This document shows positions 11,543 to 27,174 of a stretch of DNA of 32,000 bases, in pieces; the first letter of the stretch is position 1, and each line of letters begins with the position of its first letter. The translations under genes were made by a program, and so were the position numbers. Below the pieces are notes generated by a model, which saw nothing but the letters and a program-made list of their open reading frames with translations, was not told the origin of the DNA and did not search any database. This stretch comes from Acaryochloris marina S15 (lineage in GTDB: Bacteria; Cyanobacteriota; Cyanobacteriia; Thermosynechococcales; Thermosynechococcaceae): the NCBI RefSeq assembly GCF_018336915.1, contig NZ_CP064923.1, forward strand, positions 5,790,001 through 5,822,000. Direction: 5' to 3'.

Positions 11543-13927
11543 ATGCCTAATTTCAATTCACTCAATGATGGCGATCTAGAAAATGGTCCTGTTGTGCTAG
11601 ATGAATTCCGCGAATCTTTGCGCGTCCGCTCGGGTCAAAACTTACAAACGGGCGATCAAAATAGCGTGGTGACGGAAGGCGTCCTCAACACAGTTGTAGT
11701 AGAAGGCAATGCTGCGATTGAGAGCAATGACACGGCTGTGGAAGCCAATGGTTTAGCCAGCATCATCTTTAACCAGGGCACCATTGCTGGAGGTGTGAAT
11801 GGTGTCAGTGCGACGGGCAATCGTTTTCGCTTGTTTAACCGGGGCACTATTGCGTCTGACAGCCGAGCGGTGGATATCAGCGATGGGGATGGCAGCATTG
11901 TCATCAATTCTGGTTCGATTATTGGCACAGACGATCAGCGAAACGGGACTTTATATGTCGATGGCACCGTCGATAACTTCCGGCTTCTCAATCAACGCTC
12001 GGGCGTTATTGATGCGGGAGATGGCAATCTTGGAGATGCCGTTTCGGTACAGGTGGGTGCTACAGATGATCCCACCAGCGAGGGTATCAATATTGTCAAC
12101 AATGGTTTATTCCAAGGCCGGGGCGATGGCCCAGAGGTTTTTGCCAACGGTGCCCGAGTCGCCCCTAATGGGTCAAGCGGCCTTCGATTCTTTAATGGCT
12201 CAGGTCAGCCCGAGACTTCCGTGAGTGGATCTGTGATTAATAACGGTACGATTACCGCCGAAGTGAATGTGGGCTTTCTCGGCGGCTTGGTCGTAGAAGA
12301 TGGCGTGGGTTTTGATGGGCAGATTGTCAATGGCCGTAATGGTCTGATTGAAGGGCCTCGGAATGGTCTTTATATTGGTAATGCAGACCATGATCTAACG
12401 ATTCGCAACTTTGGTCGCATCGAGTCTGGGAGTCGGGCGGTCAATATCGACGGCACAGGTGTAGATTTACTGAACTATGGCACCATCACGGGTACCGGCA
12501 ATCAGCGTAATGGCACTGTTTACTCAGATGCCACAGCAGATAACTACCGAATTTTTAATGGCCGTTCGGGCGTCATTGATGCAGGAGTTGGTAACCAAGG
12601 AGCAGGAATTGCCCTGCAGACGGGTGATATTGCAGGAGATGTTGTTAATTCGACGTTAACTAACTTTGGCACGATACAGGGTCGAGGTCAGGCTGCTGCT
12701 AACTTAGGTTTAGCAGGTGATGGTCTACGAATTTTTTCTGGTGTCGATGGTGGAGGAACCGTCTATCGTGGCAACATTTTTAACCAGGGTCGAATTCTTT
12801 CCGAAAGTTTGCAAGGTCCGACTGCTGCAGTTCGATTTTCCAATGGCCTGGCCTATGAAGGGACATTGACCAACGCCAGAGGAGGACTCATTGATGGTGC
12901 TCAAAATGGCTTGTATTTTGGCGATGCTGACCATGATGCAACGGTGATTAATCGTGGCACCATTCAAAGCGGTAGCCGAGCTGTCAACATTGATGGTTCT
13001 GGTGTTGATTTGCGTAACTTTGGTCAAATTTTGGGGACAGATGATCAACGTAACGGTACAGTTTATGCCGACTCAACTGCAGAAGACTACTCCATTTTCA
13101 ATGGACGTTCAGGGTTGATTGACGCCGGTGAAGGCAATAACGGTGCTGGTGTTTCCTTGCAGACAGGCGATGAAGATGGTGATATCGTCGAAGCCTCACT
13201 CCGCAATGACGGTTTAATCCGAGGCCGTGGAGATGGCGTAGGTAATCAGGCTGGCGACGGTGTTCGTCTGTTTACGAGTGTGGCTGGATCCACAACCTTT
13301 GCGGGGGATTTGGATAATCGAGGTCAAATCTTTGGTACGGATGATGGCATCGATATTCAAACCGGGGTAACGCTAGATGGCGACATTAATAACTCAGGTT
13401 TGCTTGCCGCAGATGAGATTGGGGTCAATATTAGTGGAGCGCTTAATGGTGAATTGAATAACCAAGGCACCATTACCGGGAGAGCTGCTGCCATTGATGC
13501 GAGTGCAGCTACTGCTGGAATCACCGTCAATAACCAAGGTGAGATCAATGGTGATGTGACCCTAAGTAACTTTGACGATATCTTTAACGGTGCAGAAGGC
13601 ACGGTTAATGGCGTCATTAATGGAGGTGGAGGCAACGACCTTCTGATTGGGGGGCGTCAAAACGATATCTTTGTAGGAGGTGACGGTCAGGATACGTTCG
13701 TATTTGCAGCAAATTCAGGGGTTGATATCGTCACAGATTTTGCAACTAGCGAGATTGATGTTCTTGATTTCAGCGCTGTCTTTAGTGATATCAACGAAAT
13801 TGTGGGGGTTGGCGGCGCTGCGACTCAGGTGGGTACTGCCACCTTGATTGATTTGGGAAATAACAATGAAGTAGTGCTATTGAATGTCAGTGTAAGTGAC
13901 TTAACAGTGGATAACTTTATCGTTTAA
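11543..13927 (+). CDS. Secreted repeat protein, probable T1SS substrate (beta-helix-like N/G/D-rich repeats plus C-terminal RTX nonapeptides)
   Basis: 794 aa with no N-terminal signal peptide. There are three ~181-190-aa tandem repeats (SRAV(D/N)I.. at aa 107, 297, 478). GGGGNDLLIGGRQNDIFVGGDGQDTFVF (aa 694-721) is a hemolysin-type Ca-binding repeat block, followed by a ~70-aa non-repeat C-terminus. The gene lies next to an ABC/HlyD pair. Confidence 0.85.
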   Translation: MPNFNSLNDGDLENGPVVLDEFRESLRVRSGQNLQTGDQNSVVTEGVLNTVVVEGNAAIESNDTAVEANGLASIIFNQGTIAGGVNGVSATGNRFRLFNRGTIASDSRAVDISDGDGSIVINSGSIIGTDDQRNGTLYVDGTVDNFRLLNQRSGVIDAGDGNLGDAVSVQVGATDDPTSEGINIVNNGLFQGRGDGPEVFANGARVAPNGSSGLRFFNGSGQPETSVSGSVINNGTITAEVNVGFLGGLVVEDGVGFDGQIVNGRNGLIEGPRNGLYIGNADHDLTIRNFGRIESGSRAVNIDGTGVDLLNYGTITGTGNQRNGTVYSDATADNYRIFNGRSGVIDAGVGNQGAGIALQTGDIAGDVVNSTLTNFGTIQGRGQAAANLGLAGDGLRIFSGVDGGGTVYRGNIFNQGRILSESLQGPTAAVRFSNGLAYEGTLTNARGGLIDGAQNGLYFGDADHDATVINRGTIQSGSRAVNIDGSGVDLRNFGQILGTDDQRNGTVYADSTAEDYSIFNGRSGLIDAGEGNNGAGVSLQTGDEDGDIVEASLRNDGLIRGRGDGVGNQAGDGVRLFTSVAGSTTFAGDLDNRGQIFGTDDGIDIQTGVTLDGDINNSGLLAADEIGVNISGALNGELNNQGTITGRAAAIDASAATAGITVNNQGEINGDVTLSNFDDIFNGAEGTVNGVINGGGGNDLLIGGRQNDIFVGGDGQDTFVFAANSGVDIVTDFATSEIDVLDFSAVFSDINEIVGVGGAATQVGTATLIDLGNNNEVVLLNVSVSDLTVDNFIV
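11861..13340 (+). repeat. Three in-frame tandem repeats (~543-570 bp each) inside the 794-aa gene
   Basis: The protein segments starting at aa 107, 297 and 478 align by eye, for example GSRAVNIDG(T/S)GVDL.N(Y/F)G.I.GT..QRNGTVY.D.TA(D/E).Y.IFNGRSG(V/L)IDAG.GN.GAG(I/V).LQTGD. Confidence 0.8.
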
Positions 13928-14751: not shown

Positions 14752-15504
14752 ATGATCTCTGCCCTACCGATTGTGGATAAAACTGTTCAACCCTCTGATT
14801 TAATTCCTTTGCTTGGGCAATATCAGCTGCTTCCTCAGTTGCTGAAAGAACTGATTATTGACCAAGCTATTCAAGACGTTCAATTAGGCCCAGAAGAAGT
14901 TGTACAAGCAGTAGAGCAGTTCTATCGTCAGCATCAAATCGGTGAGGAAGCTAGACGTGAGGCTTGGCTAAAGCATTATCGGATGACGCCTCAGCAGTTG
15001 GCTGCGCAAGCCCAACGGCAGTTGAAACTGCATAAATTTAAACTCCAAACCTGGAATAACCAGGTAGAGTCTGATTTTCTCCAGCAAAAAGGGCAGTTTG
15101 ATCAATATGTTTATTCTTTGATCCGAGTGGCCAGTGCCGAAGTGGCTCAAGAATTATATTTCCGACTGCAGGCCGGTGAACAAGCGTTTGCAGATTTGGC
15201 AACCAAATATTCTCAAGGTCCTGAAGCACAAACAGGTGGATTGATTGGTCCTGTTACTGCAGCCAATCTACATCCCACGTTAGTGCAAATTCTGACGAGT
15301 GCTCAACCTGGGCAAGTACGCCCTCCTATTCGCTTAGGTGAATGGTTTGTGATTGTCAGTTTGCAAAAATTGATCTCGGCTCAACTAGATGCCCCGCTGC
15401 GACAACAATTGCTGGAGCAGCGTTTTAATGAGTGGCTCCAATTGCAGCTTAAATCGGCTGCAATTTCTGATGACTCTATTGCTGTTTCGGCGCGAACACC
15501 ATGA
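14752..15504 (+). CDS. Parvulin-type (PpiC/SurA-like) peptidyl-prolyl isomerase family protein, probably non-catalytic
   Basis: 250 aa. The C-terminal half matches the parvulin fold pattern (FADLATKYSQGPEAQTGGLIGPV...LHPTLVQIL...GQVRPPIRLGEWFVIV). No signal peptide is visible. Its stop overlaps the ABC start (ATGA at 15501-15504). Confidence 0.75.
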   Translation: MISALPIVDKTVQPSDLIPLLGQYQLLPQLLKELIIDQAIQDVQLGPEEVVQAVEQFYRQHQIGEEARREAWLKHYRMTPQQLAAQAQRQLKLHKFKLQTWNNQVESDFLQQKGQFDQYVYSLIRVASAEVAQELYFRLQAGEQAFADLATKYSQGPEAQTGGLIGPVTAANLHPTLVQILTSAQPGQVRPPIRLGEWFVIVSLQKLISAQLDAPLRQQLLEQRFNEWLQLQLKSAAISDDSIAVSARTP

Positions 15505-18458
15505 CTTCAGCCATCCTTGCTCTGGAATCCTTTCTTAAGGATCTACCCGGTTTTAACCAGCTTTCAGAAGCGGTTTTATCTTCGGTGGCGAAAGAATTTC
15601 AACCATTGCGCTATCCCATGGGCCGCCCCCTTGTGTCTAATCGGGCCATGCCTCAAGACTTTACCCTGATCTATCAAGGGCAGGTGCGCCTATTAGGTTA
15701 CGATCCTCGCACCGATACTCCAGTGACCCTCAGTCTGTTGGGACCGGGTGCTGCAGTCGGGTGGATTAGCCTGGTGCGCCAAATTCCCTGTGAGACGGCC
15801 ATTGCTTCGGTGGAAACAGTGGGATTAAAGTTGCCTGCGGCGACTTTTTTAGAGCTGCTGGAACATGAATCGAGCCTGGCTCAAGTGTATGAGCAGCAGG
15901 CTAATATTCTCGAAGCGTTTGATGTTCTGGGCCAACAGTTATTGATCCGGGCGGATGGCTCGACTGACCTGAAATTTTTGGCAGAAAGAGCTTTACCAGC
16001 AAGTCTGATTCAAAAGTGCCCCATCCGAGATATCTCTATTGATCAATTACAGCCCAATTTGGAATGGTTTGTGAGTGGAGGGTCCATTCCTGACTTGGAA
16101 ATTGGTCAACCCTTGGAAACCTGTCTAGAGCAGCTCAATGGCACGGTCTCTCGTTCAGAAACACTCCGGTTGATTGGGTTATCACCGATCAAGGCCCAGC
16201 AGCTATCGATTGAGCCAGTGGCTTCTATTCCCCAAGCAGATACTTGGGAGGATATCCCCGAAGCACCAACTTTGCTGCCTGCGGTCGATGATGCCCCGGT
16301 GAAACATGGCAAATATCCCTTTAAGTCTGGTCGGGGCCCTATTGATGCCCCGCTGGCTTGTTTCCAAATGCTGGCGCTGTATCTCAATTTGCCGTTTCGC
16401 AAGGATGTTCTGCGGCGCATTCTCAAAAACCAAGCGGAGCGCAATGGTCCAGGAATTTCCCTGCCGGTGTATGGTGCGATCTCAGAGTCGATGGGATTAC
16501 GAGCCCAGTTAGTGGAAACCCCTGCTTCTGCGTTTTCTCGTCTTCCTGCTCCTGCCTTAATCAATTGGCAAGATCGTATTGCACTGGTGTATGAAACCAG
16601 TGCTAAAGAAATCGTATTTGCGGTGCCTGAGCAAACCTTGCTGCGTCAGCACCCCGATGAATTTTTGGAAGCCTTTGATGACAAGGTGCAAGTGCTGCTG
16701 CTAGAGCGCACCCATGATACGCCCCAAAGTCGATTTAACCTGAGCTGGTTTTGGCCTTCGATTAAGAAGCACCGTAAGGTTTTGATTGAGGTGCTGATTG
16801 CCTCTTTCTTTGTGCAGTTATTTGGTTTAGCGAATCCGCTTATTACCCAGGTCATTATTGATAAAGTTTTATCCCAAGGGGCTTTGGGGACCCTGAATGT
16901 CCTCGGTATGTTGTTGGTTGGTGTGGCTGTTTTTGAAGCCTTGCTCACCAGTTTTCGGACCTATCTGTTTGTGGATACCACGAATCGGATTGATATGTCC
17001 CTAGGAGCGGAGGTGATCGATCACTTAGTCCGATTACCCCTACGCTATTTTGATAAGCGGCCTGTGGGTGAACTCGCCACCCGAGTGAATGAACTCGAAA
17101 ACATCCGTAAGTTTTTGACGGGAACGGCTTTGACGGTGGTGTTGGATGCGGTTTTCTCCGTGGTGTACATCGTCGTCATGGTGTTCTACAGCTGGCTGCT
17201 GACGATTATTGCCCTGGGTACGGTACCGTTATTTGCCTTGCTAACCTTTATTTTTGCGCCGATTATTCGCCGCCTTGCCCGGACTAAGGCTGAGGAGAAC
17301 GCCAAGACCCAGTCGTACTTGGTGGAGGTGGTATCGGGAATACAAACGGTCAAAGCTCAAAATATTGAGCTGAAATCCCGATGGCAATGGCAAGATCGCT
17401 ATGCCCGGTATGTCAGCGCTGGATTTAAGGCGGTTGTGGCATCTACAACAGCTGGCTCCATGAGTGGCTTTTTGAATAAGTTATCTAGTCTGCTCTTGCT
17501 GTGGGTGGGAGCCTATCTATTTATTGAAGGGCAGTTGACCGTGGGTGAATTGATTGCCTTTCGTATTATTGCTGGTTATACCACTGGCCCCTTGCTCCGG
17601 TTAGTGCAGCTATGGCAGAACTTCCAAGAAACAGCACTGTCCCTAGAACGATTGAGCGATATTCTCGACTATCCCCAAGAAGTGACTGAAGCAGATCGAG
17701 ATTTAATCCCCATGCCGCTAATGGAGGGGGCCGTCAAGTTTGAGGATCTGTCTTTCCGGTTTAAGGATAGTGGACCGATGCAGCTTCAGCAGGTGTCTCT
17801 CGAAGTGCCAGCTCAAACCTTTGTGGGAATTGTCGGTCAGAGTGGTTCCGGTAAGAGTACCTTGATGAAGCTGCTGATGCGACTTTATAACGCGAATGGA
17901 GGACGAATCGTAGTCGACCAGTACGACATTAGCAAGGTCGAGCTATACTCTCTCCGGCGTCAAATTGGCATGGTGCTGCAGGATAGTTTGCTGTTTGATG
18001 GCACGGTGCAAGAGAATATTGCTCTTTCGGCACCAGATGCAACGGCGGAAGAAATTGTGGAGGCCGCCAGAATAGCCTATGCCCATGATTTCATTATGGA
18101 GCTGCCCCAAGGCTATAACTCCCGAGTGGGTGAGCGGGGCTCGTCTTTGTCTGGGGGACAACGGCAACGGATTGCGATCGCAAGAATGGTACTGCAAAAT
18201 CCCCAGCTCATTATTCTGGATGAAGCCACGAGTGCACTAGATTACAACGCTGAACGGCAAGTCTGTCTTAATCTGGCAGAAGCCTTTGGTGATCGCACCG
18301 TTTTCTTTGTTACCCACCGCCTCAAAACTTTGGAATCAGCAGATATGATTCTGATGATGGATCAGGGCAATCTAGTAGAACAAGGCACCCATGCAGAATT
18401 GATGCAGCAAAAAGGTCGATATTACTGGCTTTACCAGCAACAGGAGACTCAATCATGA
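15501..18458 (+). CDS. T1SS ABC transporter with N-terminal cNMP-binding-like domain and C39-like (apparently inactive) peptidase domain
   Basis: 985 aa. It has a CAP-effector-like fold at aa ~8-125, a C39-like domain at aa ~270-405 and a 6-helix TMD. The NBD carries Walker A GQSGSGKST, signature LSGGQRQRIAIAR, Walker B IILDEATSALD and the H-loop VTHRL. Confidence 0.95.
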   Translation: MTSAILALESFLKDLPGFNQLSEAVLSSVAKEFQPLRYPMGRPLVSNRAMPQDFTLIYQGQVRLLGYDPRTDTPVTLSLLGPGAAVGWISLVRQIPCETAIASVETVGLKLPAATFLELLEHESSLAQVYEQQANILEAFDVLGQQLLIRADGSTDLKFLAERALPASLIQKCPIRDISIDQLQPNLEWFVSGGSIPDLEIGQPLETCLEQLNGTVSRSETLRLIGLSPIKAQQLSIEPVASIPQADTWEDIPEAPTLLPAVDDAPVKHGKYPFKSGRGPIDAPLACFQMLALYLNLPFRKDVLRRILKNQAERNGPGISLPVYGAISESMGLRAQLVETPASAFSRLPAPALINWQDRIALVYETSAKEIVFAVPEQTLLRQHPDEFLEAFDDKVQVLLLERTHDTPQSRFNLSWFWPSIKKHRKVLIEVLIASFFVQLFGLANPLITQVIIDKVLSQGALGTLNVLGMLLVGVAVFEALLTSFRTYLFVDTTNRIDMSLGAEVIDHLVRLPLRYFDKRPVGELATRVNELENIRKFLTGTALTVVLDAVFSVVYIVVMVFYSWLLTIIALGTVPLFALLTFIFAPIIRRLARTKAEENAKTQSYLVEVVSGIQTVKAQNIELKSRWQWQDRYARYVSAGFKAVVASTTAGSMSGFLNKLSSLLLLWVGAYLFIEGQLTVGELIAFRIIAGYTTGPLLRLVQLWQNFQETALSLERLSDILDYPQEVTEADRDLIPMPLMEGAVKFEDLSFRFKDSGPMQLQQVSLEVPAQTFVGIVGQSGSGKSTLMKLLMRLYNANGGRIVVDQYDISKVELYSLRRQIGMVLQDSLLFDGTVQENIALSAPDATAEEIVEAARIAYAHDFIMELPQGYNSRVGERGSSLSGGQRQRIAIARMVLQNPQLIILDEATSALDYNAERQVCLNLAEAFGDRTVFFVTHRLKTLESADMILMMDQGNLVEQGTHAELMQQKGRYYWLYQQQETQS

Positions 18459-20026
18459 CCATTACTCAAGATTTCGCTGGCGACCCCCAAAGACCTTCGA
18501 CTGAATCAGAGCAAAATGTATTACCCCTAACAAAGGGCCGTCCCACAAAAGAGAAGCCGTTTGATCGGCCAGTCATTCTCCAGCAATCTCCGGTTTGGTC
18601 TAGAGCGATCATTTGGGGGATTGTGGGCGCTGCTTCGGCAGCATTGGCATGGGCCTGTTTGTTTCAAATTGAAGAAGCGATTCCTGCAACTGGCCAGCTA
18701 GAACCCCAGGGAGCAGTCAAACCCATCCAATCTCCGGTTACAGGTGTTGTGACAGAGATCAAAGTTGACGAAGGACAGTTGGTTAAAGCCGGCGATCCAT
18801 TGATTTTTCTGAACGCAAAAGGCACGAACTCTGAAATCAAGTCCCTAGAAGATCAACTTGACCAACTCCGTGAAGTCAACAAATATTACCGCCAGCAGCT
18901 AGAAGGAAATAGTGTTGCCCCGCTTCCAGATGTGATTAATGTCGAGTTGATTAATGCGACGCGTGATCGGCGGGCCCTCGTCGCTGAGAATAAACTATTC
19001 AGAGCCCAACTGAATGGAGCGAAAAACGCTAAAGCCTTTTCACCGGAAGAGCAACAGCGCTTGAAGTCTGGGTTGTTGCAAGGCTCGTCTAGTGTAGCGG
19101 CTGCCCAAGCCCGAGTGATGCAAGGTGAAAAACAGCTGCGCCAAATTGAAGTGCAGCTAGAGCAGACCAAAATTCAATTAGCTAGTGCTCAACAGACCTT
19201 GTCTCTGAATCAAGAGATTGTTAAAGATATTGAAGAGGCCCACAAGAAAGGGGCAATTGCCCGGGTTCAATTTAAACGTCAAGAAGATGAAGTGCAGTCT
19301 GGTCAAGCAGAAGTCTCTCGTCTGCAGCAAGAGCAAATTCGCTTGTTACGTCAAATGGAGCAAATTGGTCAAGAGAAGGTACAGTCTCAAGCACAAGCTC
19401 TCAATACAGTAGCCACCAACCAGCGAGATTTGTTGGATCGGATTGCCGCAAATGAAAAACAGATCACGGAAATCGATAGCCAGCTCACCAAAGCGGTCGT
19501 TGATAATAAAAGAGCAATTGCAGATTTAAACAGTCGTTTGACACAAGCCCAACTAACTCGCGAGTATCAAGTGTTGAAAGCACCTGTGGATGGGTTGGTG
19601 TTTGATCTCCAGCCTAGTGGACCTGGCTTTGTGGTGAATGCGAGTGAGCCGATTTTGAAAATTGTGCCGTCTGATAGTCTAAAGGCCAAAGTCTACATCA
19701 CCAATAAAGATATTGGCTTTATTCAAACAGGAATGCCTGTCGATGTACGAGTCGATTCGTTTAACTTTAGTGAATTTGGCGATATTGAAGGAACCATTGA
19801 GTCCATTGGCTCTGATGCTTTACCGCCAACGGAGGTGCGCCAGTTTTACAGCTTTCCAGCCATGGTGCAGTTAGATTCACAAACATTAGAGGCTAAGGGG
19901 CGTAATCTAGATTTGCAGTCTGGGATGTCTGTCAGTGTCAATATCAAAGTACGCAAGCGACCTATCATTAGTTTGATTACCGATCGCTTTTCCAAGGAAG
20001 CCGATGGCATTAAGCATTTACGCTAA
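18455..20026 (+). CDS. HlyD-family periplasmic adaptor (membrane fusion protein) of the T1SS
   Basis: 523 aa with a single N-terminal TM (AIIWGIVGAASAALAWACLF), a lipoyl-like segment, a long Q/E-rich coiled coil and a C-terminal beta-barrel segment. There is an ATGA overlap with the ABC gene at 18455-18458. Confidence 0.9.
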   Translation: MTITQDFAGDPQRPSTESEQNVLPLTKGRPTKEKPFDRPVILQQSPVWSRAIIWGIVGAASAALAWACLFQIEEAIPATGQLEPQGAVKPIQSPVTGVVTEIKVDEGQLVKAGDPLIFLNAKGTNSEIKSLEDQLDQLREVNKYYRQQLEGNSVAPLPDVINVELINATRDRRALVAENKLFRAQLNGAKNAKAFSPEEQQRLKSGLLQGSSSVAAAQARVMQGEKQLRQIEVQLEQTKIQLASAQQTLSLNQEIVKDIEEAHKKGAIARVQFKRQEDEVQSGQAEVSRLQQEQIRLLRQMEQIGQEKVQSQAQALNTVATNQRDLLDRIAANEKQITEIDSQLTKAVVDNKRAIADLNSRLTQAQLTREYQVLKAPVDGLVFDLQPSGPGFVVNASEPILKIVPSDSLKAKVYITNKDIGFIQTGMPVDVRVDSFNFSEFGDIEGTIESIGSDALPPTEVRQFYSFPAMVQLDSQTLEAKGRNLDLQSGMSVSVNIKVRKRPIISLITDRFSKEADGIKHLR

Positions 20027-20079
20027 GTCGTAAAAGCCCTGACTTAGTGGCATGTGCTTTCAGCTCAGCAGCTTGGTTC

Positions 20080-20109
20080 AAAAAAGCCCTGACGAAATGT
20101 CGTCAGGGC
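20080..20109 (-). terminator. Rho-independent terminator for the small minus-strand ORFs
   Basis: The stem is GCCCTGACG (20086-20094) / CGTCAGGGC (20101-20109) with a 6-nt loop. On the minus strand it is followed by TTTTTT (complement of 20080-20085). There is no U-tract in the plus orientation. Confidence 0.65.
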
Positions 20110-20174
20110 AGCATCATCAGGTATGTGACATGAGCGCTGGATCATTCGCCTAGAGATGTGCTATTTCTTCGGAA

Positions 20175-20303
20175 TCACTCTGACTCGTTCATACTTTCTA
20201 CATCTAAATCGAGCAGCATAAAACTTTTAATCTCTGTATCAGATAAAAAGAGAGACTGCTCAATAGGGGAGATAGTTGTGCTTAAAGTGTTGTGGAGAGT
20301 CAT
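20175..20303 (-). CDS. Small acidic protein, paralog A (42 aa, C-terminally shorter)
   Basis: My translation is MTLHNTLSTTISPIEQSLFLSDTEIKSFMLLDLDVESMNESE. It is paralogous to 20385..20585. The ORF is below the track threshold and is supported by the synonymous-rich substitution pattern between the two copies. Confidence 0.4.
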   Translation of the reverse strand: MTLHNTLSTTISPIEQSLFLSDTEIKSFMLLDLDVESMNESE

Positions 20304-20384
20304 GGTTGTAAGCGTCTGGGGGAGTGCTGTCTGAAAGGCAAAGGGATCAATATTGGATATGTGGTGTAAGGCTAGGTCATTCGC

Positions 20385-20585
20385 CTAGAGATGTGCCAAC
20401 TCTCCTTCAATTCCAAGCCCTTCATTCATACTTTCTACATCTAAATCGATCAGCATGAAACTTTTAATTTCTGCGTCAGATAAAAAGAGAGACTGCTCAG
20501 TATAGGAGGCAGTTGTGCTTAAGGTGTTGAGAAGAGTCATGGTTTGAATGTTTTGGAGAAGTGCTATCTGAGAGGTCTGAGTCAT
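20385..20585 (-). CDS. Small acidic protein, paralog B (66 aa; alternative start ATG 20540 gives 51 aa)
   Basis: This is the ORF-track entry. Its core EQSLFLSDAEIKSFMLIDLDVESMNE is shared with paralog A. Over 40 aligned codons there are 7 synonymous and 6 non-synonymous differences. Confidence 0.5.
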   Translation of the reverse strand: MTQTSQIALLQNIQTMTLLNTLSTTASYTEQSLFLSDAEIKSFMLIDLDVESMNEGLGIEGELAHL

Positions 20586-20773
20586 TGGGGTAGTCGGGGT
20601 TGGTTGCTTATAGATATAGACTAACCATTACAGTAAGCTTGAGAGTCAAGAGAAATTTGTATAAGAATAAATTATACTTGGCGTTTCTTCCATATACCTG
20701 ATGGCTTAAAAGCCATATATAGAAAGACTTTACGTATGACTAATGTTTTTTTGTGGATATACATTTTGCAGAC

Positions 20774-20807
20774 AAAAAAACTGCTCTGGCAGCACCAGAG
20801 CAGTTTT
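20774..20807 (-). terminator. Rho-independent terminator of the giant RTX gene (bidirectional-looking)
   Basis: The stem is CTGCTCTGG (20781-20789) / CCAGAGCAG (20795-20803) with a 5-nt loop. An A7 run precedes it and T4 follows on the plus strand, so the minus-strand RNA reads hairpin plus U7. It lies 65 nt downstream of the stop at 20872. Confidence 0.8.
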
Positions 20808-20871: not shown

Positions 20872-23800
20872 CTAGATATAGATGAAAGAGCTGTCTTCCA
20901 AGCTGAAAACAGAGTCACTCATAACATTAGCAATCAGCTCATCAGCACCACCATTAGAATCCAAATAGATTCCGGTGCCGCCCATGCCAGGTGCTGAAGC
21001 GCCTAAGACATAGTCGGATGCGGAGCCACTGAGTTGGATCATATCCTCACCTCCATTGAAGTCGGTAATGACAGCAAAGTCATTCAGACCTGCAGATGTA
21101 TCATCGCCGTCGTTGTAGTAGGCAACATCACCACCGAGGACGAAATAGTCTGCACCTTCATCTCCAGTCAGATAGTCAATGGAACCACTGCCTTTGAGGG
21201 TGTCGCTGTTGGCACCGACTAAGACATCAGCACCACTCCCACCCAGAAGGGTGTCATTACCTTCGTGGCCGATTAAGGTGTCGTTGTTAGCACCGCCTTC
21301 CAGCATATCGTTGCCAGCGCCAGCATAGAGGGCATCGGTCCCGTCACCACCTAGCAGTTGGTTATTTCCAGTGCTGCCAAACAGAACATCATTGCCAACG
21401 CCACCATCTAATAAGTCATTGCCCGTATCGGCATAAAGGGAATCATTTCCTTCTCCTCCTAGAAGTGTGTCAATACCAGACCCACCGAAGAGCTGGTCAT
21501 TGCCACTGCCCCCTTCGAGCACATCATTACCGCTACCACCTTTGAGGTGGTCTGCACCCGCACCCGCACTAAGGATATCGTCATTACTGCCGCCGTCTAG
21601 GGTGTCTTTACCGTCGCCACTGGTGAGGGTGTCATTGCCTGATCCACCTTTGAGGTTGTTGTTGCCACCCGTCGTGGTCAAGACATCATCCCCGGCACCT
21701 CCATCTAAACGGTCACTGCCGCTGCCACTAGAGAGGGTGTCATTTCCACCCTGGCCATAGAGCTTCACTTTGGCACCATTAGTGGATGTAATTTGGTCAT
21801 TACCACTGTTGGCAGAAAGGGTTTCGATACCAACGGCATCGATATTCATGTTCAGGTCAGAGGTGCTTTGAAAGTAAGCCGTATCTGTACCTGTACCACC
21901 TTCAACAACGGTATCGTCAGCATCGAAGTAGAGTTTATCGTTGCCCGCGCCCCCGATGAGTTGGTCTGCACCTGCATCCCCTTTCAGGATGTCGTTTCCA
22001 GACCCGGCATCTAAGAGGTCATCGCCACTGCCGCCAAGCAGGCTGTCGTTTCCACTATCAGCGCTGAGGGTATCGTTTCCAGACCCACCGTCTAAGGTGT
22101 CTTTGCCCCCGGCGGTAGTCAAGCTATCGTTGCCGTCGCCACCGAATAGGGCATTGTTACCACCGCTAGAAGATAAGACATCGTTACCACTGCCACCGTC
22201 TAAACGATCGTTGCCGCTGCTGCTAGTGAGGGTGTCATCGCCAGCCAGACCATACATTTTAATGTTGGTGCCATTGCTAGAGGTGAACTGGTCGTTCCCA
22301 GCATTACCGTGAATTTCTTCAATGCTGACATCATCAATATTGAGAGTTAGACCATCGCTACTTTGGAGTTTGGCAACATCTGTACCGTCGCCACCGTCAA
22401 AGGTATCGTCACCATCGAAGTTAATGGTATCGTTACCTGCGCCGCCCAATAAAGTATCGGCCCCAGCATTGCCTGAGAGAACATCGTTGCCCTCTTGACC
22501 TTCTAGGAGGTCATCTCCCGTACCACCCGAGAGAATGTCATTGCCTGCCCCAGCAAGAATGGTGTCATTACCGATTCCCCCATCGAGATTGTCATGGCCG
22601 GTGCCTCCAGTGATGCTGTCATCTCCAGCTTCACCATGAATTTCAACATTCTCGGTCCCGGAATTGGTAAAGACATCATCGCCGCCAGAACCGTAGGCCA
22701 ATTCAATTTGGCTAGCGCCTAGATCTAGGGTGACGGGCTGATTGCCTTGAGCACGAGCGATGTCGTAACCGTCGCCACCATCGACTACGGTATCATCCGC
22801 ATCGAACAGCAATGTGTCAGAGCCGTCACCCCCATACAGTTCATCTGCTCCGTCGCCACCGACCAACATGTCATTCTCAGTGCCACCTTCGAGGATGTCA
22901 TCCCCAGCATTACCTTCAAGGTAGTCATGGCCTGCCCCACCGGAAATCAGGTCGTTGCCTTCACCTGCGATGGCAGTATCTTCACCCGCTCCACCAGCTA
23001 GGGTATCGTCACCAGTGCCGCCTTCTAGATAGTCATTAGCTGAGCCACCGGATAACTGGTCATCACCACCGTTACCGAACAAAGCAACCGTCGTAGAAGC
23101 TGGAGTACCAGCACCATTCGTATTAGTGAAAATATCATCCCCACTATTGCCGTGGGCTTCATTAAAGCTGTTAGCACCTGCATCAAAGACGACACCTTCA
23201 GCCGATTCCACCATGGCGATGTCATAGCCTTCACCACCCAGGATTTGGGTGTCAGCAGCATCAATGAACACAACGTCATTGCCATCGCCACCTAAGAGAG
23301 TATCTGCGCCTGCACCGCCACTAATGGCATCATTGCCGCTGCCCCCATCGATAAAATCATCTCCAGCATTACCGGAGAGCCATTCGTCATTACCTGCATT
23401 ACCCGAAATGACGTCAGCGCCTTCGCCCCCTTCAATGACATCTTGGCCGTCGCCACCACTGAGTTGGTCAGCGCCTTCACCGCCGCTCAAGTAGTCGTTG
23501 CCTGCATCACCTGAGAGGACATCATCTCCGGCATCACCCATAAGGACGTCTTTTTCTTCTCCACCGAAGAGGGTATCGTTGCCAGCGCCCCCTTCCAGAA
23601 TGTCTAAGCCAGCTTCTCCTTTCAGGAGATCGGCATTATCGCCGCCACCCAAGGAGTCGTTGCCAGCACCGCCGTATAGCGTATCTAGTCCAGCATCGCC
23701 TTGGAGAATGTCATTGCCAGCGTCACCGGTCAGTAGGTCATCACCGGCACCGCCGAGGACTGTATCATCGGCTTCACCCCCAGAAACGGTATCATTTCCT

Positions 23801-25569
23801 TCGCCCCCAGAAACGATGTCGCTGCCGAGACCGCCTTCTACGAGGTCATTGCCAGCACCACCGTCGACCCAAAAGTCATCTCCTTCGCCCCCTTTAAGAA
23901 TGTCATCGCCAGCATCGCCTTTGAGGACATCGTTTCCGGCATCTCCTTCTAAGACATCATTGCCGAGACCACCGCTGAGAGTGTCACTGCCGAGACCACC
24001 ACTGAGCTGGTCCTGGCCTTCGCCCCCATCGACGATGTCATTGCCGGCATCACCTGTGAGAACGTCATCGCCTGCATTACCGAGGACGGTGTCATTGCCG
24101 TCGCCACCGCTAACAGTATCTTGGTCTGCCCCACCCGCAACGACATCATTGCCGAGGCCGCCTTCAACGAGGTCATTGCCTGCACCACCGTCAACCCAGT
24201 AGTCGTTGCCTTCTCCAGCATTCAGGTAATCATTACCCGCATCGCCCATTAGGACATCATTACCCGTGTTACCGAGGAGGATATCTGCACCTTCCCCACC
24301 GGACATCACATCTTCGCCAGCCCCGCCATCGATTAAATCAGCGCCTTCGCCACCGGAGAGCCAACCATCGTTACCCGCGCCACCGTCTATGGTGTCATTG
24401 CCCTGGCCACCTTCGATGGCATCCATACCCTCATCTCCAGAGAGCAGGTCATCGCCTAATCCACCACTAACAAAGTCATGACCAGCACCACCGCTGATGG
24501 TGTCTTGTCCCGCATCTCCGTAAAGAACGTCTTGGTCACCTTCGCCAGTAATAAGGTCGTCGCCTTCGCCACCGTGAATATTGTCATCGCCTTGACCCCC
24601 GGATAAGGTATCTGTACCCGTGCCTCCGTCCATATGGTCAACTTGTTCGCCGCCGAACAGGGCATCGTCGCCTGCTCCCCCGGTGAGGGTGTCATCATTG
24701 GCACCGCCATAGAGGGTATCGTTGCCTTCACCCCCATCCATGATGTCGTTACCTTCCTCGCCGTAGAGGGCATCGTTGCCTTCGCCGCCAGACATCCAAT
24801 AGTCGTCACCCGCACCCCCTATCAGCTCATCGTTGCCGGCTTCTCCCATGAGGATGTCGTTGCCGGATTGACCTAGGATTTTGTCATCTCCCAGACCGCC
24901 CTTAAGGGTGTCGGCACCTGCACCGCCGTCTAGTAAGTCAGCACCAGTACCGCCGTCGATATAATCTGTACCAGAACCCGCTAATAAAGTATCTTGGCCT
25001 TCATTGCCAAGGAGGTTGTCATTGCCTGTGCCACCGGTGACAAAATCATTGCCTTCGCCGCCACTGAGAATATCGTTGCCTGCGTCTCCATGCAGGGTGT
25101 CGTCGCCAGCTTCACCGGCTAGCCAGTAGTCATCTCCTTGACCACCAATGATCATGTCTGCGCCTTGATCGCCCATGATGGCGTCTTTACCTAAGCCACC
25201 GATGAGGACATCATTACCAACGCCACCTAGTAAGAGGTCGTCGTTTTGGGTGCCGCTAATAGCATTGGGATCAGCGAAACCCGCACCACTCTCATCTACT
25301 GGACCGCTATAGATATAGTTGCCATTGGCGTCTTGTTGCCAGTTTTGGGTACCGCCTTCATCACCATGCATCCAGTCGTTGCCTTGGCTGCCAGAGAGCG
25401 TATCGTTGCCCGTGCCACCTTTAACGACATCATCACCTTCGTTACCCGAAAGCCACATATCATCGCCTTCGCCACCGATAATGGTATCGTCGCCTTCATT
25501 GCCGACGACGACGTCATCTGCTTCTGAGCCAAATAGTGCTTCGCTGTTTTCAGTACCAAATACTTGCAT
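20872..25569 (-). CDS. Giant RTX / hemolysin-type calcium-binding repeat protein, probable T1SS substrate
   Basis: 1565 aa, starting directly with repeats and no signal peptide. GGxGxDxLx nonapeptides run along almost the whole length, well over 100 units by eye. Four ~75-aa spacer modules interrupt them, and a ~110-aa non-repeat C-terminus (..DFAVITDFNGGEDMIQLSG..SVFSLEDSSFIYI) follows. Confidence 0.95.
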   Translation of the reverse strand: MQVFGTENSEALFGSEADDVVVGNEGDDTIIGGEGDDMWLSGNEGDDVVKGGTGNDTLSGSQGNDWMHGDEGGTQNWQQDANGNYIYSGPVDESGAGFADPNAISGTQNDDLLLGGVGNDVLIGGLGKDAIMGDQGADMIIGGQGDDYWLAGEAGDDTLHGDAGNDILSGGEGNDFVTGGTGNDNLLGNEGQDTLLAGSGTDYIDGGTGADLLDGGAGADTLKGGLGDDKILGQSGNDILMGEAGNDELIGGAGDDYWMSGGEGNDALYGEEGNDIMDGGEGNDTLYGGANDDTLTGGAGDDALFGGEQVDHMDGGTGTDTLSGGQGDDNIHGGEGDDLITGEGDQDVLYGDAGQDTISGGAGHDFVSGGLGDDLLSGDEGMDAIEGGQGNDTIDGGAGNDGWLSGGEGADLIDGGAGEDVMSGGEGADILLGNTGNDVLMGDAGNDYLNAGEGNDYWVDGGAGNDLVEGGLGNDVVAGGADQDTVSGGDGNDTVLGNAGDDVLTGDAGNDIVDGGEGQDQLSGGLGSDTLSGGLGNDVLEGDAGNDVLKGDAGDDILKGGEGDDFWVDGGAGNDLVEGGLGSDIVSGGEGNDTVSGGEADDTVLGGAGDDLLTGDAGNDILQGDAGLDTLYGGAGNDSLGGGDNADLLKGEAGLDILEGGAGNDTLFGGEEKDVLMGDAGDDVLSGDAGNDYLSGGEGADQLSGGDGQDVIEGGEGADVISGNAGNDEWLSGNAGDDFIDGGSGNDAISGGAGADTLLGGDGNDVVFIDAADTQILGGEGYDIAMVESAEGVVFDAGANSFNEAHGNSGDDIFTNTNGAGTPASTTVALFGNGGDDQLSGGSANDYLEGGTGDDTLAGGAGEDTAIAGEGNDLISGGAGHDYLEGNAGDDILEGGTENDMLVGGDGADELYGGDGSDTLLFDADDTVVDGGDGYDIARAQGNQPVTLDLGASQIELAYGSGGDDVFTNSGTENVEIHGEAGDDSITGGTGHDNLDGGIGNDTILAGAGNDILSGGTGDDLLEGQEGNDVLSGNAGADTLLGGAGNDTINFDGDDTFDGGDGTDVAKLQSSDGLTLNIDDVSIEEIHGNAGNDQFTSSNGTNIKMYGLAGDDTLTSSSGNDRLDGGSGNDVLSSSGGNNALFGGDGNDSLTTAGGKDTLDGGSGNDTLSADSGNDSLLGGSGDDLLDAGSGNDILKGDAGADQLIGGAGNDKLYFDADDTVVEGGTGTDTAYFQSTSDLNMNIDAVGIETLSANSGNDQITSTNGAKVKLYGQGGNDTLSSGSGSDRLDGGAGDDVLTTTGGNNNLKGGSGNDTLTSGDGKDTLDGGSNDDILSAGAGADHLKGGSGNDVLEGGSGNDQLFGGSGIDTLLGGEGNDSLYADTGNDLLDGGVGNDVLFGSTGNNQLLGGDGTDALYAGAGNDMLEGGANNDTLIGHEGNDTLLGGSGADVLVGANSDTLKGSGSIDYLTGDEGADYFVLGGDVAYYNDGDDTSAGLNDFAVITDFNGGEDMIQLSGSASDYVLGASAPGMGGTGIYLDSNGGADELIANVMSDSVFSLEDSSFIYI
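21445..22428 (-). repeat. Internal ~492-bp (164-aa) super-repeat, two copies, within the RTX gene
   Basis: Residues 1048-1211 and 1212-1375 align by eye: (I/L)(N/Y)FD(G/A)DDT..GG.GTD.A..QS(S/T)(D/S).L.(L/M)NID.(V)(S/G)IE....N(A/S)GNDQ(F/I)TS(S/T)NG...K(M/L)YG..G(D/N)DTL(T/S)S.SG(N/S)DRLDGG.G(N/D)DVL...GGNN.. Confidence 0.75.
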
Positions 25570-25742: not shown

Positions 25743-26699
25743 TTAAGGAACAGGTTGTGGATAGCTAACGGTTGAGTTATCAACCACGATGGGTTCATCC
25801 ACAATCACGTCTTCAAGATTGGCATCGATTAAATTGCTGCCAAAGAGGTTAACCCCTCGTAAATCTGCTCCCTGCAAATTGGCTCCCATGAGAATGGCTT
25901 CGCTGAGGTTGGCACCTCGCAGGTCGGCTTCACATAGACAGGCACCACCCAAGTTGCTGCCAATTAAACTGGTTTCGGTGAGGGTGGCTTCACTTAAATC
26001 TGTGCCAATGAGAACTGCATGGGATAAGTCAGCTTGTTTGAGATAGGCCCCGATCATATCGGCTCCGCTGAGATAGGCTTCTCGAAATGTGCATTGCTCT
26101 AGGGCGGCTTCATTCAAACTCGCTAGCATCAGCTCAGCCCGATTGAAATTGGCATGGCTGAGTAAGGTGCCGCTTAATTTAGCACCAATCAACTTCAGGC
26201 CCGCAAAATGGCGTTCGCCTGCGGCATATTTTGCCAGCATGCCTCTGCTGATATCTTCGTCTCCCTCAAGGACTGTCAGACTTTGGTCTTCAATCGTTTG
26301 CAGCAGTTTTAAGAGAGATTGGGATTGGGGGCCGACGGTGCTAAGCTGCTGTAATTGTTCAAACCGGCGTCCGAGCTGCTGTCGGGTTTGGTTGAGTTCT
26401 GTGAGTTGTTGATCTAAGTCTTCGATATGGCAGGCCACCATCTGCTGCATGCGCTGTTGAGCATCTTTGGACTGTTCGCCGATGTCCAGCAGTTCTTTAA
26501 TTTCATGGAGGGAAAGGCCAAAGTTTTGGGCACTGCGAATAATTTGTAATCTCTCTTGGGCTGCTATGGTGTAGAGTCGATAACCGGATCGATTCCGTTC
26601 AGGTTGTTTGAGTAGCCCGAGTTGCTCATAATAGCGAATCGCTTGGGGAGAGACACCAAATTTACTGGCTAATTGGCCAATGAGCAGTCCAGTCGTCAT
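25743..26699 (-). CDS. MerR-family HTH regulator fused to a C-terminal pentapeptide-repeat domain
   Basis: From ATG 26699 the sequence is MTTGLLIGQLASKFGVSPQAIRYYEQLGLL..RSGYRLY..LQIIRSAQNFGLSLHEIKELL, the MerR HTH plus wing. A Q-rich coiled coil follows, then ~27 consecutive A(D/N)Lxx-type pentapeptides (aa 186-322 of the long ORF). The longest ORF starts at 26768. Confidence 0.85.
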   Translation of the reverse strand: MTTGLLIGQLASKFGVSPQAIRYYEQLGLLKQPERNRSGYRLYTIAAQERLQIIRSAQNFGLSLHEIKELLDIGEQSKDAQQRMQQMVACHIEDLDQQLTELNQTRQQLGRRFEQLQQLSTVGPQSQSLLKLLQTIEDQSLTVLEGDEDISRGMLAKYAAGERHFAGLKLIGAKLSGTLLSHANFNRAELMLASLNEAALEQCTFREAYLSGADMIGAYLKQADLSHAVLIGTDLSEATLTETSLIGSNLGGACLCEADLRGANLSEAILMGANLQGADLRGVNLFGSNLIDANLEDVIVDEPIVVDNSTVSYPQPVP

Positions 26700-26856
26700 T
26701 TTGTTATCAGGGATTGAAAATCCAGCTTTTTTATCAGTTATTCTTAGGATGCCCAAATAAAAAGGCAATTGAGCGGAGTAAAGACGACAAACTCCAGCAA
26801 AAATTGCCTCAGATAGATGTAAGGTTTATTGAAAATAGTTTGGATTTGACTATTAA

Positions 26857-27174
26857 TTAAGCCATAGCAGCAACTAAATGATTTGTAGTTTTTGGTCCAA
26901 CCTTTTCTTTGAGAATATCTTGGATTTGACGCAGATAATCTTCGGCAACTTCTTGAGGAAAGTTGAGGTGGATGGTGAGATTAGGATTGCTGCTATAGAT
27001 GTGTAATGAGCCATAGGTGGGTAACCAGCCTGAGAAGCCAGCCACCTGTGTATAGGCGATAAATTGAAAAGCCCGAGTGCTGGGGTTAGAGTATTCAATT
27101 CCGCTTTCTGTAAGGGTTATAGTGACATCGCTGTTTGCATCTTTGGGATGAAAACCTTTGAATTCCATTCTCAT
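26857..27174 (-). CDS. Hypothetical protein (105 aa)
   Basis: ATG-initiated ORF with non-repetitive, beta-rich-looking composition. It is on the same strand as the MerR-pentapeptide gene and just upstream of it. No family recognised. Confidence 0.5.
   Translation of the reverse strand: MRMEFKGFHPKDANSDVTITLTESGIEYSNPSTRAFQFIAYTQVAGFSGWLPTYGSLHIYSSNPNLTIHLNFPQEVAEDYLRQIQDILKEKVGPKTTNHLVAAMA

Follow-up and report, generated by a model that had tools for sequence, protein, structure and literature searches.

Between a type I secretion system (T1SS) operon and the gene of an RTX protein, the genome of Acaryochloris marina S15 carries a duplicated segment with two small open reading frames (ORFs) on the minus strand, here called copy B and copy A. 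This locus raises the question whether the two ORFs are genes, how they are controlled, and whether they belong to the secretion system that they adjoin. The sequence considered is a stretch of 32,000 nucleotides (nt) of contig NZ_CP064923.1, referred to as the window, and all coordinates of the locus are positions in this window. Judged by its substitution pattern, copy B is a genuine gene, which appears to be separately transcribed with a conserved promoter and a conserved terminator of its own. Copy A is a partial duplicate whose core is under purifying selection, as if it were translated from its own ATG. The family to which both belong is an orphan family restricted to Acaryochloris, without resemblance to anything characterized.

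Copy B and its orthologues

The repeat and the ORFs within it are the following.

20136..20338, no strand assigned: repeat unit with copy A, from the repeat search
20371..20575, no strand assigned: repeat unit with copy B, 84-85% identical to the A unit
20385..20585, minus strand: copy B, acidic protein of 66 amino acids (aa) with 9 D+E and 1 K+R, defined by ORF, synteny, dN/dS and database identity
20304..20384, minus strand: spacer between B and A
20175..20303, minus strand: copy A, core-only ORF of 42 aa, partial tandem duplicate of B

The initial annotation had described a tandem duplication of about 235 bp with a common boundary string, and both positions of this 20-nt string, TCATTCGCCTAGAGATGTGC, were reproduced (20142 and 20377), as were the exact translations of the two ORFs. 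The repeat consists of the pairs 20136-20168/20371-20403 (85% identity) and 20185-20338/20422-20575 (84%), spaced by 235 and 237 nt, respectively. The homology extends over about 203 versus 205 nt with a single 2-nt indel, far beyond chance. No extra copies of the small gene were found in the window, in related loci or on plasmids. A 13-nt inverted repeat (20115-20127/20691-20703) was taken as a chance occurrence; about 0.4 such pairs are expected per 1.2 kb, and it is missing in other lineages.

A scripted comparison of A and B over 40 codons from the shared ATG gave the same difference counts as the initial annotation, namely, seven synonymous differences (codons 3, 6, 22, 24, 28, 39, and 40) and six non-synonymous ones (H/L, I/A, P/Y, I/T, T/A, and L/I). 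Past codon 40, a segment of 22 nt in one copy and 24 nt in the other is followed by renewed homology at GCACATCTCTAGGCGAATGA, with A out of frame, again as described before.

RefSeq already contains copy B as a hypothetical protein; it is identical to WP_212663840.1/QUY42680.1 (HRE53_12840) of Acaryochloris sp. 'Moss Beach'. Its orthologue in A. marina MBIC11017 is AM1_3184, also annotated as hypothetical. Homologues in other genomes had been sought as a check on the coding prediction, and they were present at the same spot in every recovered locus (L001-L011 and L021), which represent about 10 distinct Acaryochloris lineages. The position is constant: the gene lies past the 3′ end and terminator of the RTX gene and is convergent with hlyD. 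The approximately 10 long-form orthologues are all intact, and their indels are exclusively in frame, so that the frame disruption named beforehand as a sign against coding did not appear. Pairwise NG86 dN/dS ratios, i.e., non-synonymous relative to synonymous divergence, were between 0.08 and 0.27, except for three close pairs with values up to 0.34, at dS values ranging from 0.3 to more than 2, which means saturation. The purifying selection originally proposed from the two copies thus holds between them and is more strongly evident among the orthologues. It is unevenly distributed along the protein, with pN/pS ratios of 0.46 for residues 1-15, 0.59 for residues 16-29, 0.17 for the core (residues 30-55), and 0.64 for the tail. 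Copy B accordingly has an N-terminal helix (residues 3-29 in the AlphaFold2 model), a variable linker, the conserved core EQSLFLSDAEIKSFMLIDLDVESMNE, and a poorly conserved tail.

These data bear on the alternative that the repeat is a non-coding RNA or regulatory DNA in which the ORFs occur by chance. Such a reading could appeal to the shortness of the ORFs, to the lack of a Shine-Dalgarno sequence ahead of either of them, and to sub-threshold Rfam matches to NsiR1 (23.8 bits, gathering threshold 39) and Spot 42 (20.8 bits, threshold 80), which involve only the terminator hairpin. It is contradicted by the low dN/dS ratios at saturated dS, by in-frame indels as the only ones in about 10 lineages, and by the absence of any Rfam family at threshold. 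The conserved 110 nt upstream of the gene fold no better than shuffled sequences (z = -0.82) and contain 0 compensatory pairs. Rfam, folding and covariation consequently gave no RNA structure as the cause of the conservation, a possibility that had been raised with the coding prediction. The substitution pattern effectively refutes a non-coding origin, to which we give almost no credence.

A conserved candidate promoter upstream of copy B

The putative transcription signals of the unit are listed below.

20659..20679, minus strand: Box 1, AAGTATAAYTTATTCTTATAC, dyad GTATAA-N7-TTATAC, candidate transcription factor site centred near -57
20618..20650, minus strand: Box 2, YTTGACYYTCAAGCTNRCTGYARTSGYTAGKMTRT, candidate core promoter
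20076..20109, minus strand: intrinsic terminator of the small-gene unit, 10-bp stem with 7 G-C pairs and T-run, orthologous in all loci
20770..20807, minus strand: terminator of the RTX gene, 13-nt perfect arms (hairpin 20777-20807) and T-run, conserved in all loci

Box 2 consists of a -35 hexamer TTGACT (20649-20644), a 20-nt spacer and a -10 hexamer TAGTCT (20623-20618), and would place the transcription start near 20611. The arrangement TTGACY-N20-TAGKMT, with hexamers assigned by eye, has an invariant spacing in all 14 of 14 distinct promoter sequences. The spacer itself contains the dyads CTTGA-N3-TCAAG and TTAC-N-GTAA. Both boxes are present upstream of copy B, of every orthologue, and of the paralogue AM1_5890, which is located 2.7 Mb away in A. 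marina. The Box 1 dyad is invariant in all loci including this unlinked paralogue, with one differing flanking base in L021. Box 2 is near-invariant, and the two boxes are separated by nine variable bases. This near-invariance extends to lineages in which the synonymous sites of the coding sequence have reached saturation; the most conserved sequence of the whole unit is the non-coding sequence of the promoter boxes. In the paralogue, conservation falls just downstream of TAGKMT, the behaviour expected of a -10 element rather than of an element of the 5′ untranslated region (5′UTR). Inspected by eye, Box 1 and Box 2 did not fit the consensus of NtcA (GTA-N8-TAC), CRP, Fur, LexA or HLR1 sites. 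Metagenome matches to the Box 1 pattern were five AT-rich chance matches without Box 2 or the small gene.

The terminator hairpin of the small-gene unit is located at 20109-20086. The RTX terminator stands between the RTX transcript and the small-gene promoter. The two hairpins were predicted initially as evidence for an independent transcription unit; both were found, and candidate promoter and terminator are conserved in all orthologous loci. No terminator was found between B and A, which makes co-transcription of the two copies the simplest reading.

Two further features of these regions were observed. The hairpin at 20086-20109 is flanked by an A-run and, on the opposite side, by a T-run, so that it may act as terminator for hlyD as well as for the small genes, which are convergent. 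On the plus strand, the generic promoter scan called a site at 20639-20668 (TTGAGA-18-AAGAAT) that consists of Box 2 and Box 1 sequence read in reverse complement, and a divergent transcript antisense to the 3′ end of the RTX gene may start from this site.

Copy A, a duplicate reduced to the core

Homology of copy A with B begins at B codon 4; the start codon, 5′UTR and promoter of B were not duplicated. Copy A has no Box 1 or Box 2 of its own and would rely on those of B. Its ORF lacks the first 15 codons of B, and the 2-nt length difference past codon 40 shifts its frame, leading to a stop after NESE and to loss of the tail. The core nevertheless shows Sd = 5 and Nd = 2 relative to B (pS 0.36, pN 0.03; Fisher P = 0.0016). 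Had the core been neutral since the duplication, about 11.6 non-synonymous changes would be expected, and the Poisson probability of two or fewer is 7e-4. Over all 40 shared codons the constraint test was marginal (P = 0.064). The stretch homologous to B codons 1-15, upstream of the ATG of A, behaves neutrally (pN 0.43, pS 0.39). Since the core is constrained while this upstream stretch is neutral, A seems to be translated from its own ATG. The initial description of A as truncated or decaying is therefore correct in its first part, as both ends are missing, but not in its second, because the core is constrained and only the stretch upstream of the ATG is neutral.

The spacer between B and A has two parts. 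Positions 20304-20338 are homologous to B codons 4-15 and now neutral, and positions 20339-20381 (approximately) represent the ancestral 3′UTR of B, with a motif ATCCAATATTGATCCCTTTGCC that matches pre-terminator sequence in other species. The TAG stop codon of B (20382-20384) is in frame with A, and none of the 26 codons between them (20304-20381) is a stop codon. Read-through would yield a 136-aa B-A fusion, but such an arrangement arises by chance in roughly 1 of 10 cases and is probably coincidental.

Copy A is present in the window and in L004 only and is missing from the near-identical loci L003 and L005. There, B is joined directly to the 3′ flank of A, and the ATCCAATATTGATCCCTTTGCC piece is missing, from which it follows that the ancestor of these two loci had both copies and that recombination between the 20-nt repeats GCACATCTCTAGGCGAATGA deleted copy A. 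Copy A is thus dispensable. It is not called by any annotation, and its exact 42-aa sequence is missing from about 15 billion collected protein sequences. In architecture, copy A corresponds to AM1_5890, the natural short-form paralogue (39 aa).

Extent and predicted structure of the family

A profile-seeded search of 5.8 billion clusters returned a family of 15 clusters, all of the Acaryochloris type, and a profile search of 1.84 billion representatives gave only small Acaryochloris-type proteins, apart from large-protein matches that were rejected as repeat-summed artefacts (P0022 with HYR repeats; P0027-P0029 with NHL repeats, RLFVSDxxNNRVLVFD). Members are defined by a significant profile match covering the core EQSLFLSDAEINSFMLLDLDVDSMNE, and both B and A fulfil this definition: the family hidden Markov model (HMM) gave E = 4e-38 for B, 4e-32 for A, 1e-38 for AM1_3184, and 3e-11 for AM1_5890 (P0026). 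The core comprises 26 residues, [ED]QSLFLS[DE]xEI[NK]S[FI]MLLDLD[VE][DE]SMNE. A long form of the AM1_3184 type (58-77 aa) and a short form of the AM1_5890 type (39 aa, MTITPANSEQSLFLSNEEINSFLLLDLDEDSMNDASVTV) can be distinguished, the latter being conserved in several strains. All are strongly acidic, with 8-11 D+E versus 0-2 K+R, and in members other than copy A the tail keeps an x-[LIV]-[EDG]-[LIV]-[ED] pattern.

The paralogue AM1_5890 (L013 10348-10821; A. marina CP000828, ~5.95 Mb) is flanked by the gene of a PAS protein on one side and that of a Fer2-domain protein on the other; a 1502-aa CheB/CheR-PAS histidine kinase is encoded upstream of it. Its annotated 66-aa form starts at an ATG inside Box 2 of the promoter, which makes the 39-aa form the likelier product. 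No plus-strand terminator was found between AM1_5890 and the downstream Fer2-domain gene, so the two are probably co-transcribed.

The family had been described as unassignable, and this agrees with searches of Pfam and NCBIfam (E ≤ 10), PADLOC, and PHROGs (E ≤ 1), which gave nothing meaningful, and of the PDB, where sequence and profile searches were empty. Foldseek against the PDB was empty as well, but its query was a low-confidence model, which makes that result uninformative. AlphaFold2 models from 6 or 11 sequences had a mean predicted local distance difference test (pLDDT) score of 65 and predicted template modeling (pTM) scores of 0.24-0.31; they contain the N-terminal helix 3-29 and short core helices, but no compact fold. 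The models give the picture of a probably disordered peptide with one constrained linear motif. An EF-hand or Ca-binding loop in DLDVDSMNESLE was considered and rejected, as positions 6, 8, and 12 vary among the family members.

Relation to the type I secretion system

The T1SS genes are convergent with the small genes.

14752..20026, plus strand: T1SS operon (PpiC rotamase, ABC transporter, HlyD)
14752-15504, plus strand: gene of the PpiC rotamase
15501-18458, plus strand: gene of the ABC transporter, 985 aa, HlyB type, with cyclic nucleotide (cNMP)-binding, C39-like (non-catalytic), and ABC domains
18455-20026, plus strand: hlyD

The 985-aa transporter matches TIGR01846 (HlyB type) with 734 bits at a cutoff of 725.55. 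In an alignment of its C39-like domain (CLD, residues ~262-420) to HlyB (7SGR, 8DCK), the Ala in IDAPLACFQML stands at HlyB Tyr9, which according to the literature is the position of the catalytic Cys in C39 peptidases. With Ala at this position the domain is a non-catalytic CLD, and cleavage of a double-glycine (GG) leader by the neighbouring transporter is not expected.

The initial annotation had pointed out that the LSDxEIKS stretch is leader-like although no GG follows, and the alignment bears this out: LL, LI or QL occupies those positions in 11 of 11 aligned members, and none of them has a GG, GA or GS cleavage site after the leader-like helix. Set against the published leader consensus LSxxELxxIxGG, residues 35-46, LSDAEI(N/K)S(F/I)M-LL, fit five of its six conserved non-glycine positions (-4, -7, -8, -11, and -12); this is our own reading and serves as a lead rather than as a test. 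The resemblance gives rise to a second alternative, namely, that the peptide is a client of the T1SS whose leader-like helix docks on the non-catalytic CLD and which is either exported without cleavage, whether as a signal or as a small cargo, or gates or competes with the RTX cargo. Beyond the motif, it is favoured by the position of the gene, which adjoins hlyD in each locus where it is present, and an uncleavable leader would be coherent with an Ala in place of the catalytic Cys. Moreover, transporters with cNMP, C39 and ABC domains, of which HetC is an example, are thought to export still-unknown peptides in cyanobacteria (PMC10986499).

Several results oppose such a role. Besides the missing cleavage site, the motif is internal rather than N-terminal, and no member matched a curated leader family (bacteriocin, Nif11, NHLP; NCBIfam and Pfam) even at E ≤ 10. 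A cargo-like C-terminal secretion domain (...TDFxxGxDxIxL ... DxxF(I/S)YI or DNFIV) is absent from the peptide, with a probability of 0.08% in hhalign against two local cargo C termini, as are GGxGxD nonapeptide repeats and HemolysinCabind matches, and the C terminus is the least conserved part of the peptide. The same rotamase-ABC-HlyD operon, with the same CLD sequence GRGP(I/V)DAPLACFQML, occurs without the small gene and without both boxes in L024 (Acaryochloris sp. IP29b_bin.148), whose locus is likewise devoid of the MerR/cyclase/RTX block and whose genome has p105 on a different contig, and in L025, from another cyanobacterium. Finally, the paralogue AM1_5890 has an unrelated PAS/ferredoxin context away from any transporter. 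As the operon occurs without the gene and the paralogue is unlinked, the peptide is a lineage-specific add-on and not a core T1SS component, and its link to the T1SS is weaker than the position suggests. We consider a client role unlikely. Less likely still is its boldest form, according to which small clients other than RTX proteins would be seen for the first time on an HlyB-type type I ABC transporter with a C39-like domain. The peptides would bear an uncleavable pseudo-leader (LSxxEIxxFM with LL for GG) for the dead peptidase domain of a cyclic-nucleotide-gated exporter, be made from a MerR-type promoter, and either be exported as a signal or gate RTX export.

Two related ideas were discarded. 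The segment SLFLSDAEIKSFMLI resembles the cargo ends ...SVSDLTVDNFIV and ...SLEDSSFIYI by eye, but a secretion-signal mimic was ruled out by the hhalign probability given above. A precursor of a ribosomally synthesized and post-translationally modified peptide was rejected as well: the cluster has no modification enzyme, the PpiC rotamase reaches 52.6 bits at a TIGR04500 cutoff of 180, and the variable tail keeps its x-hydrophobic-acidic-hydrophobic-acidic pattern (L/I/V).

Association with a candidate regulator and a gene island

On the other side of the small genes lies a block of minus-strand genes.

20872-25569, minus strand: RTX gene, 1565 aa, 45 HemolysinCabind stretches
25743..26768, minus strand: gene of a fusion of a MerR helix-turn-helix (HTH) domain and pentapeptide repeats, candidate regulator of the Box 2 promoter
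26857-27174, minus strand: p105, hypothetical protein of 105 aa (AM1_3188 type)
27571-29241, minus strand: gene of an FHA-GAF-adenylate/guanylate cyclase

The MerR/pentapeptide gene is present in every small-gene locus whose contig reaches that far (window, L002-L005, L008, L009, and L021). Apart from the unlinked paralogue, the small gene was found only beside the MerR-regulator/cyclase block, and where the T1SS operon lacks this block (L024, L025), the small gene and both boxes are lacking too. The peptide hence appears to track the cyclase/p105/MerR/RTX island rather than the T1SS core. A spacer of 19-20 bp between -35 and -10 is a hallmark of MerR-type promoters, which makes the MerR/pentapeptide protein the best candidate for the regulator.

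Rearrangements are seen at the junction between the RTX gene and the small gene. In MBIC11017 (L008 9017-9832), an ORF of 271 aa, read as a putative insertion sequence (IS) transposase, lies between the two genes. In L021 (9430-9760), a deletion has left of the RTX gene only a few final codons (...LTDSSLTYI*) and the terminator. There, p105 is also cut to a 24-residue remnant, and small gene and promoter are intact. The small gene has thus survived both the IS insertion and the deletion of RTX and p105.

This survival has to be weighed against the explanation that the position is incidental, i.e., that B is an orphan unrelated to its neighbours, the synteny is inherited within one genus, and A is a non-functional remnant being lost. 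Within-genus synteny is the default expectation for a one-genus family, the paralogue occurs in an unrelated context, and A has neither a promoter nor a homologue of the start region, carries a frameshifted tail, was deleted in L003 and L005, is unannotated, and shows only marginal constraint over the 40 shared codons (P = 0.064). An incidental position does not readily account for a small gene and promoter kept intact through the IS insertion and the RTX/p105 deletions, and five synonymous versus two non-synonymous changes in the core of A, beside a neutral untranslated part, are hard to obtain in a dead copy. We regard it as the strongest of the competing explanations, but still as rather unlikely.

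The presence of a regulator gene also suggests that the peptide might itself act on a regulator. As an intracellular anti-regulator, it would antagonize a DNA-binding protein, e.g., the adjacent MerR/pentapeptide protein, and would thereby feed back on its own promoter, much as acidic antirepressors do by mimicking operator DNA. The strongly acidic composition, the co-occurrence with the MerR/pentapeptide gene and the operator-rich promoter shared with the paralogue fit this proposal, and CarS provides a precedent, as it sequesters the MerR-type DNA-binding domain of CarA/CarH in Myxococcus. However, no fold is predicted for the peptide, whereas CarS is SH3-like, Foldseek and PDB sequence searches were empty, and the core is a hydrophobic/acidic amphipathic segment rather than a regular array of charges. 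An anti-regulator therefore seems improbable to us.

Further features of the neighbouring genes

The MerR/pentapeptide protein, in which an HTH and dimerization region is joined to a C-terminal pentapeptide-repeat domain, is an unusual fusion; the versions in the window and in L021 share about 81% identity. For MerR/pentapeptide fusions in cyanobacteria, a literature search returned papers on unrelated topics only. For p105, no Pfam or NCBIfam family was matched. Its identity to the window protein is 95-97% in L002 and L008 and 86% in L009, whereas that of the small peptide in these loci is only 57-81%.

The cyclase gene keeps synteny with the T1SS ABC transporter that bears the N-terminal cNMP-binding domain, which suggests that secretion is gated by a cyclic nucleotide. 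In HetC of Nostoc, the domain equivalent to the cNMP-binding one binds ppGpp (PMC10986499). The HlyD protein of the window is 100% identical to that of A. marina NIES-2412, and the string AAAAGCCCTGAC occurs twice just past the hlyD stop codon (20032-20043 and 20082-20093). One further gene lies upstream of the operon.

11543-13927, plus strand: repeat protein, 794 aa, candidate for a second cargo

This protein has no Pfam match and ends with ...SVSDLTVDNFIV. The domain at its C terminus (TDFxxxEIDVLDFS...) has a parallel in the RTX protein (...TDFNGGEDMIQLSG...SSFIYI), and the T1SS probably exports this protein as a second cargo.

Discussion

The explanation that we favour, and consider probable as a whole, combines an orphan gene B, a core-only duplicate A, a promoter that serves both, and a link to the gene island. 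A partial tandem duplication of B created copy A without the promoter or the first 15 codons of B, and a later 2-nt length difference removed its tail, leaving a 42-aa ORF with a constrained core. B and A would be made from one bicistronic mRNA reaching from the conserved promoter (Box 1 dyad, TTGACT, 20-bp spacer, TAGTCT) to the hairpin at 20109-20086. The promoter would be under the control of a trans-acting regulator that also acts on the unlinked paralogue, with the neighbouring MerR/pentapeptide protein as the best candidate. The core may serve as a short binding motif and fold upon contact with a conserved partner protein, and the peptide may functionally be part of the cyclase/p105/MerR/RTX island next to the T1SS. 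In this scheme, the bicistronic transcript, the MerR-type control, and the mode of action as a peptide ligand are what we infer from the arrangement of the locus.

Some observations weigh against this explanation. A generic sigma-70 scan, which allows spacers of 16-18 nt only, missed the promoter, and the -10 element and start were assigned by eye. Within the spacer, the dyads are short and are supported by a single compensatory change, from TTAC-N-GTAA to TTGC-N-GCAA in the paralogue, and in L007 their symmetry is broken. The case for an association with the MerR block rests on one informative counter-example (L024) in addition to ordinary within-genus synteny, and AM1_5890 has no MerR gene nearby. 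The constraint on copy A could partly reflect past rather than present selection, and its loss from sister strains shows that it is not essential. Lastly, no paper in the literature searched mentions AM1_3182 to AM1_3187.

The locus provides a well-validated family of orphan small proteins from one cyanobacterial genus with an unusually conserved promoter. Copy A adds an unannotated ORF of 42 aa and illustrates cleanly how a gene can shrink in nature until its functional core is left, a course that the 39-aa paralogue has taken independently. The pair of invariant dyad boxes and the promoter with its 20-bp spacer, shared by two unlinked genes, form a compact, testable regulatory unit, which could reveal the regulon of an unstudied MerR/pentapeptide-repeat regulator. 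If the peptide acts on the adjacent cNMP-binding C39-like type I exporter, the locus also bears on the question which small peptides such cyanobacterial exporters handle, and the pseudo-leader, if real, would provide a concrete model of the kind of substrate, still unknown, that HetC-like exporters of cyanobacteria transport. The newness lies in the fact that no known family or system was matched and does not extend to a new mechanism; since small orphan genes are common and copy B has a database entry already, we consider the interest moderate.

Four known systems invite comparison. Double-glycine leader peptides (ComC, CvaC, and class II bacteriocins; Nif11 and NHLP leaders in cyanobacteria) share with the present family a small acidic peptide encoded beside a C39-type ABC exporter and an HlyD-family adaptor, the helix motif LSxxE(I/L)xx(F/I)x, and tandem copies with a conserved front and a variable C-terminal part. 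They differ in having GG, GA or GS where LL or LI is found here and in their N-terminal motif, which in our peptide is located at residues 35-46; in addition, the transporter here lacks the catalytic Cys, no leader HMM is matched, and the paralogue is away from any transporter.

HetC-type exporters have the same domain order as the neighbouring transporter (cNMP binding, C39, and ABC). HetC, however, is catalytically active and has no adjacent HlyD gene, whereas the transporter here is of the HlyB type (TIGR01846) with a dead peptidase domain and RTX cargo. A small peptide gene, sought but not found for HetC, adjoins the transporter here, its product being at most a candidate substrate.

The acidic antirepressors of MerR-family regulators, represented by CarS of Myxococcus xanthus, resemble our peptide in being small, strongly acidic proteins near a MerR-family gene with an operator-like promoter of their own. 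CarS differs in sequence and in predicted structure, being a folded SH3-like domain of about 110 aa.

The fourth comparison is with AM1_3184 and AM1_5890 of A. marina MBIC11017. Both are uncharacterized, so that membership names the family rather than a function, but they are true homologues: AM1_3184 shares the synteny of copy B, and both share its promoter, while the tandem copy A is found only in the sub-lineage represented by the window and L004.

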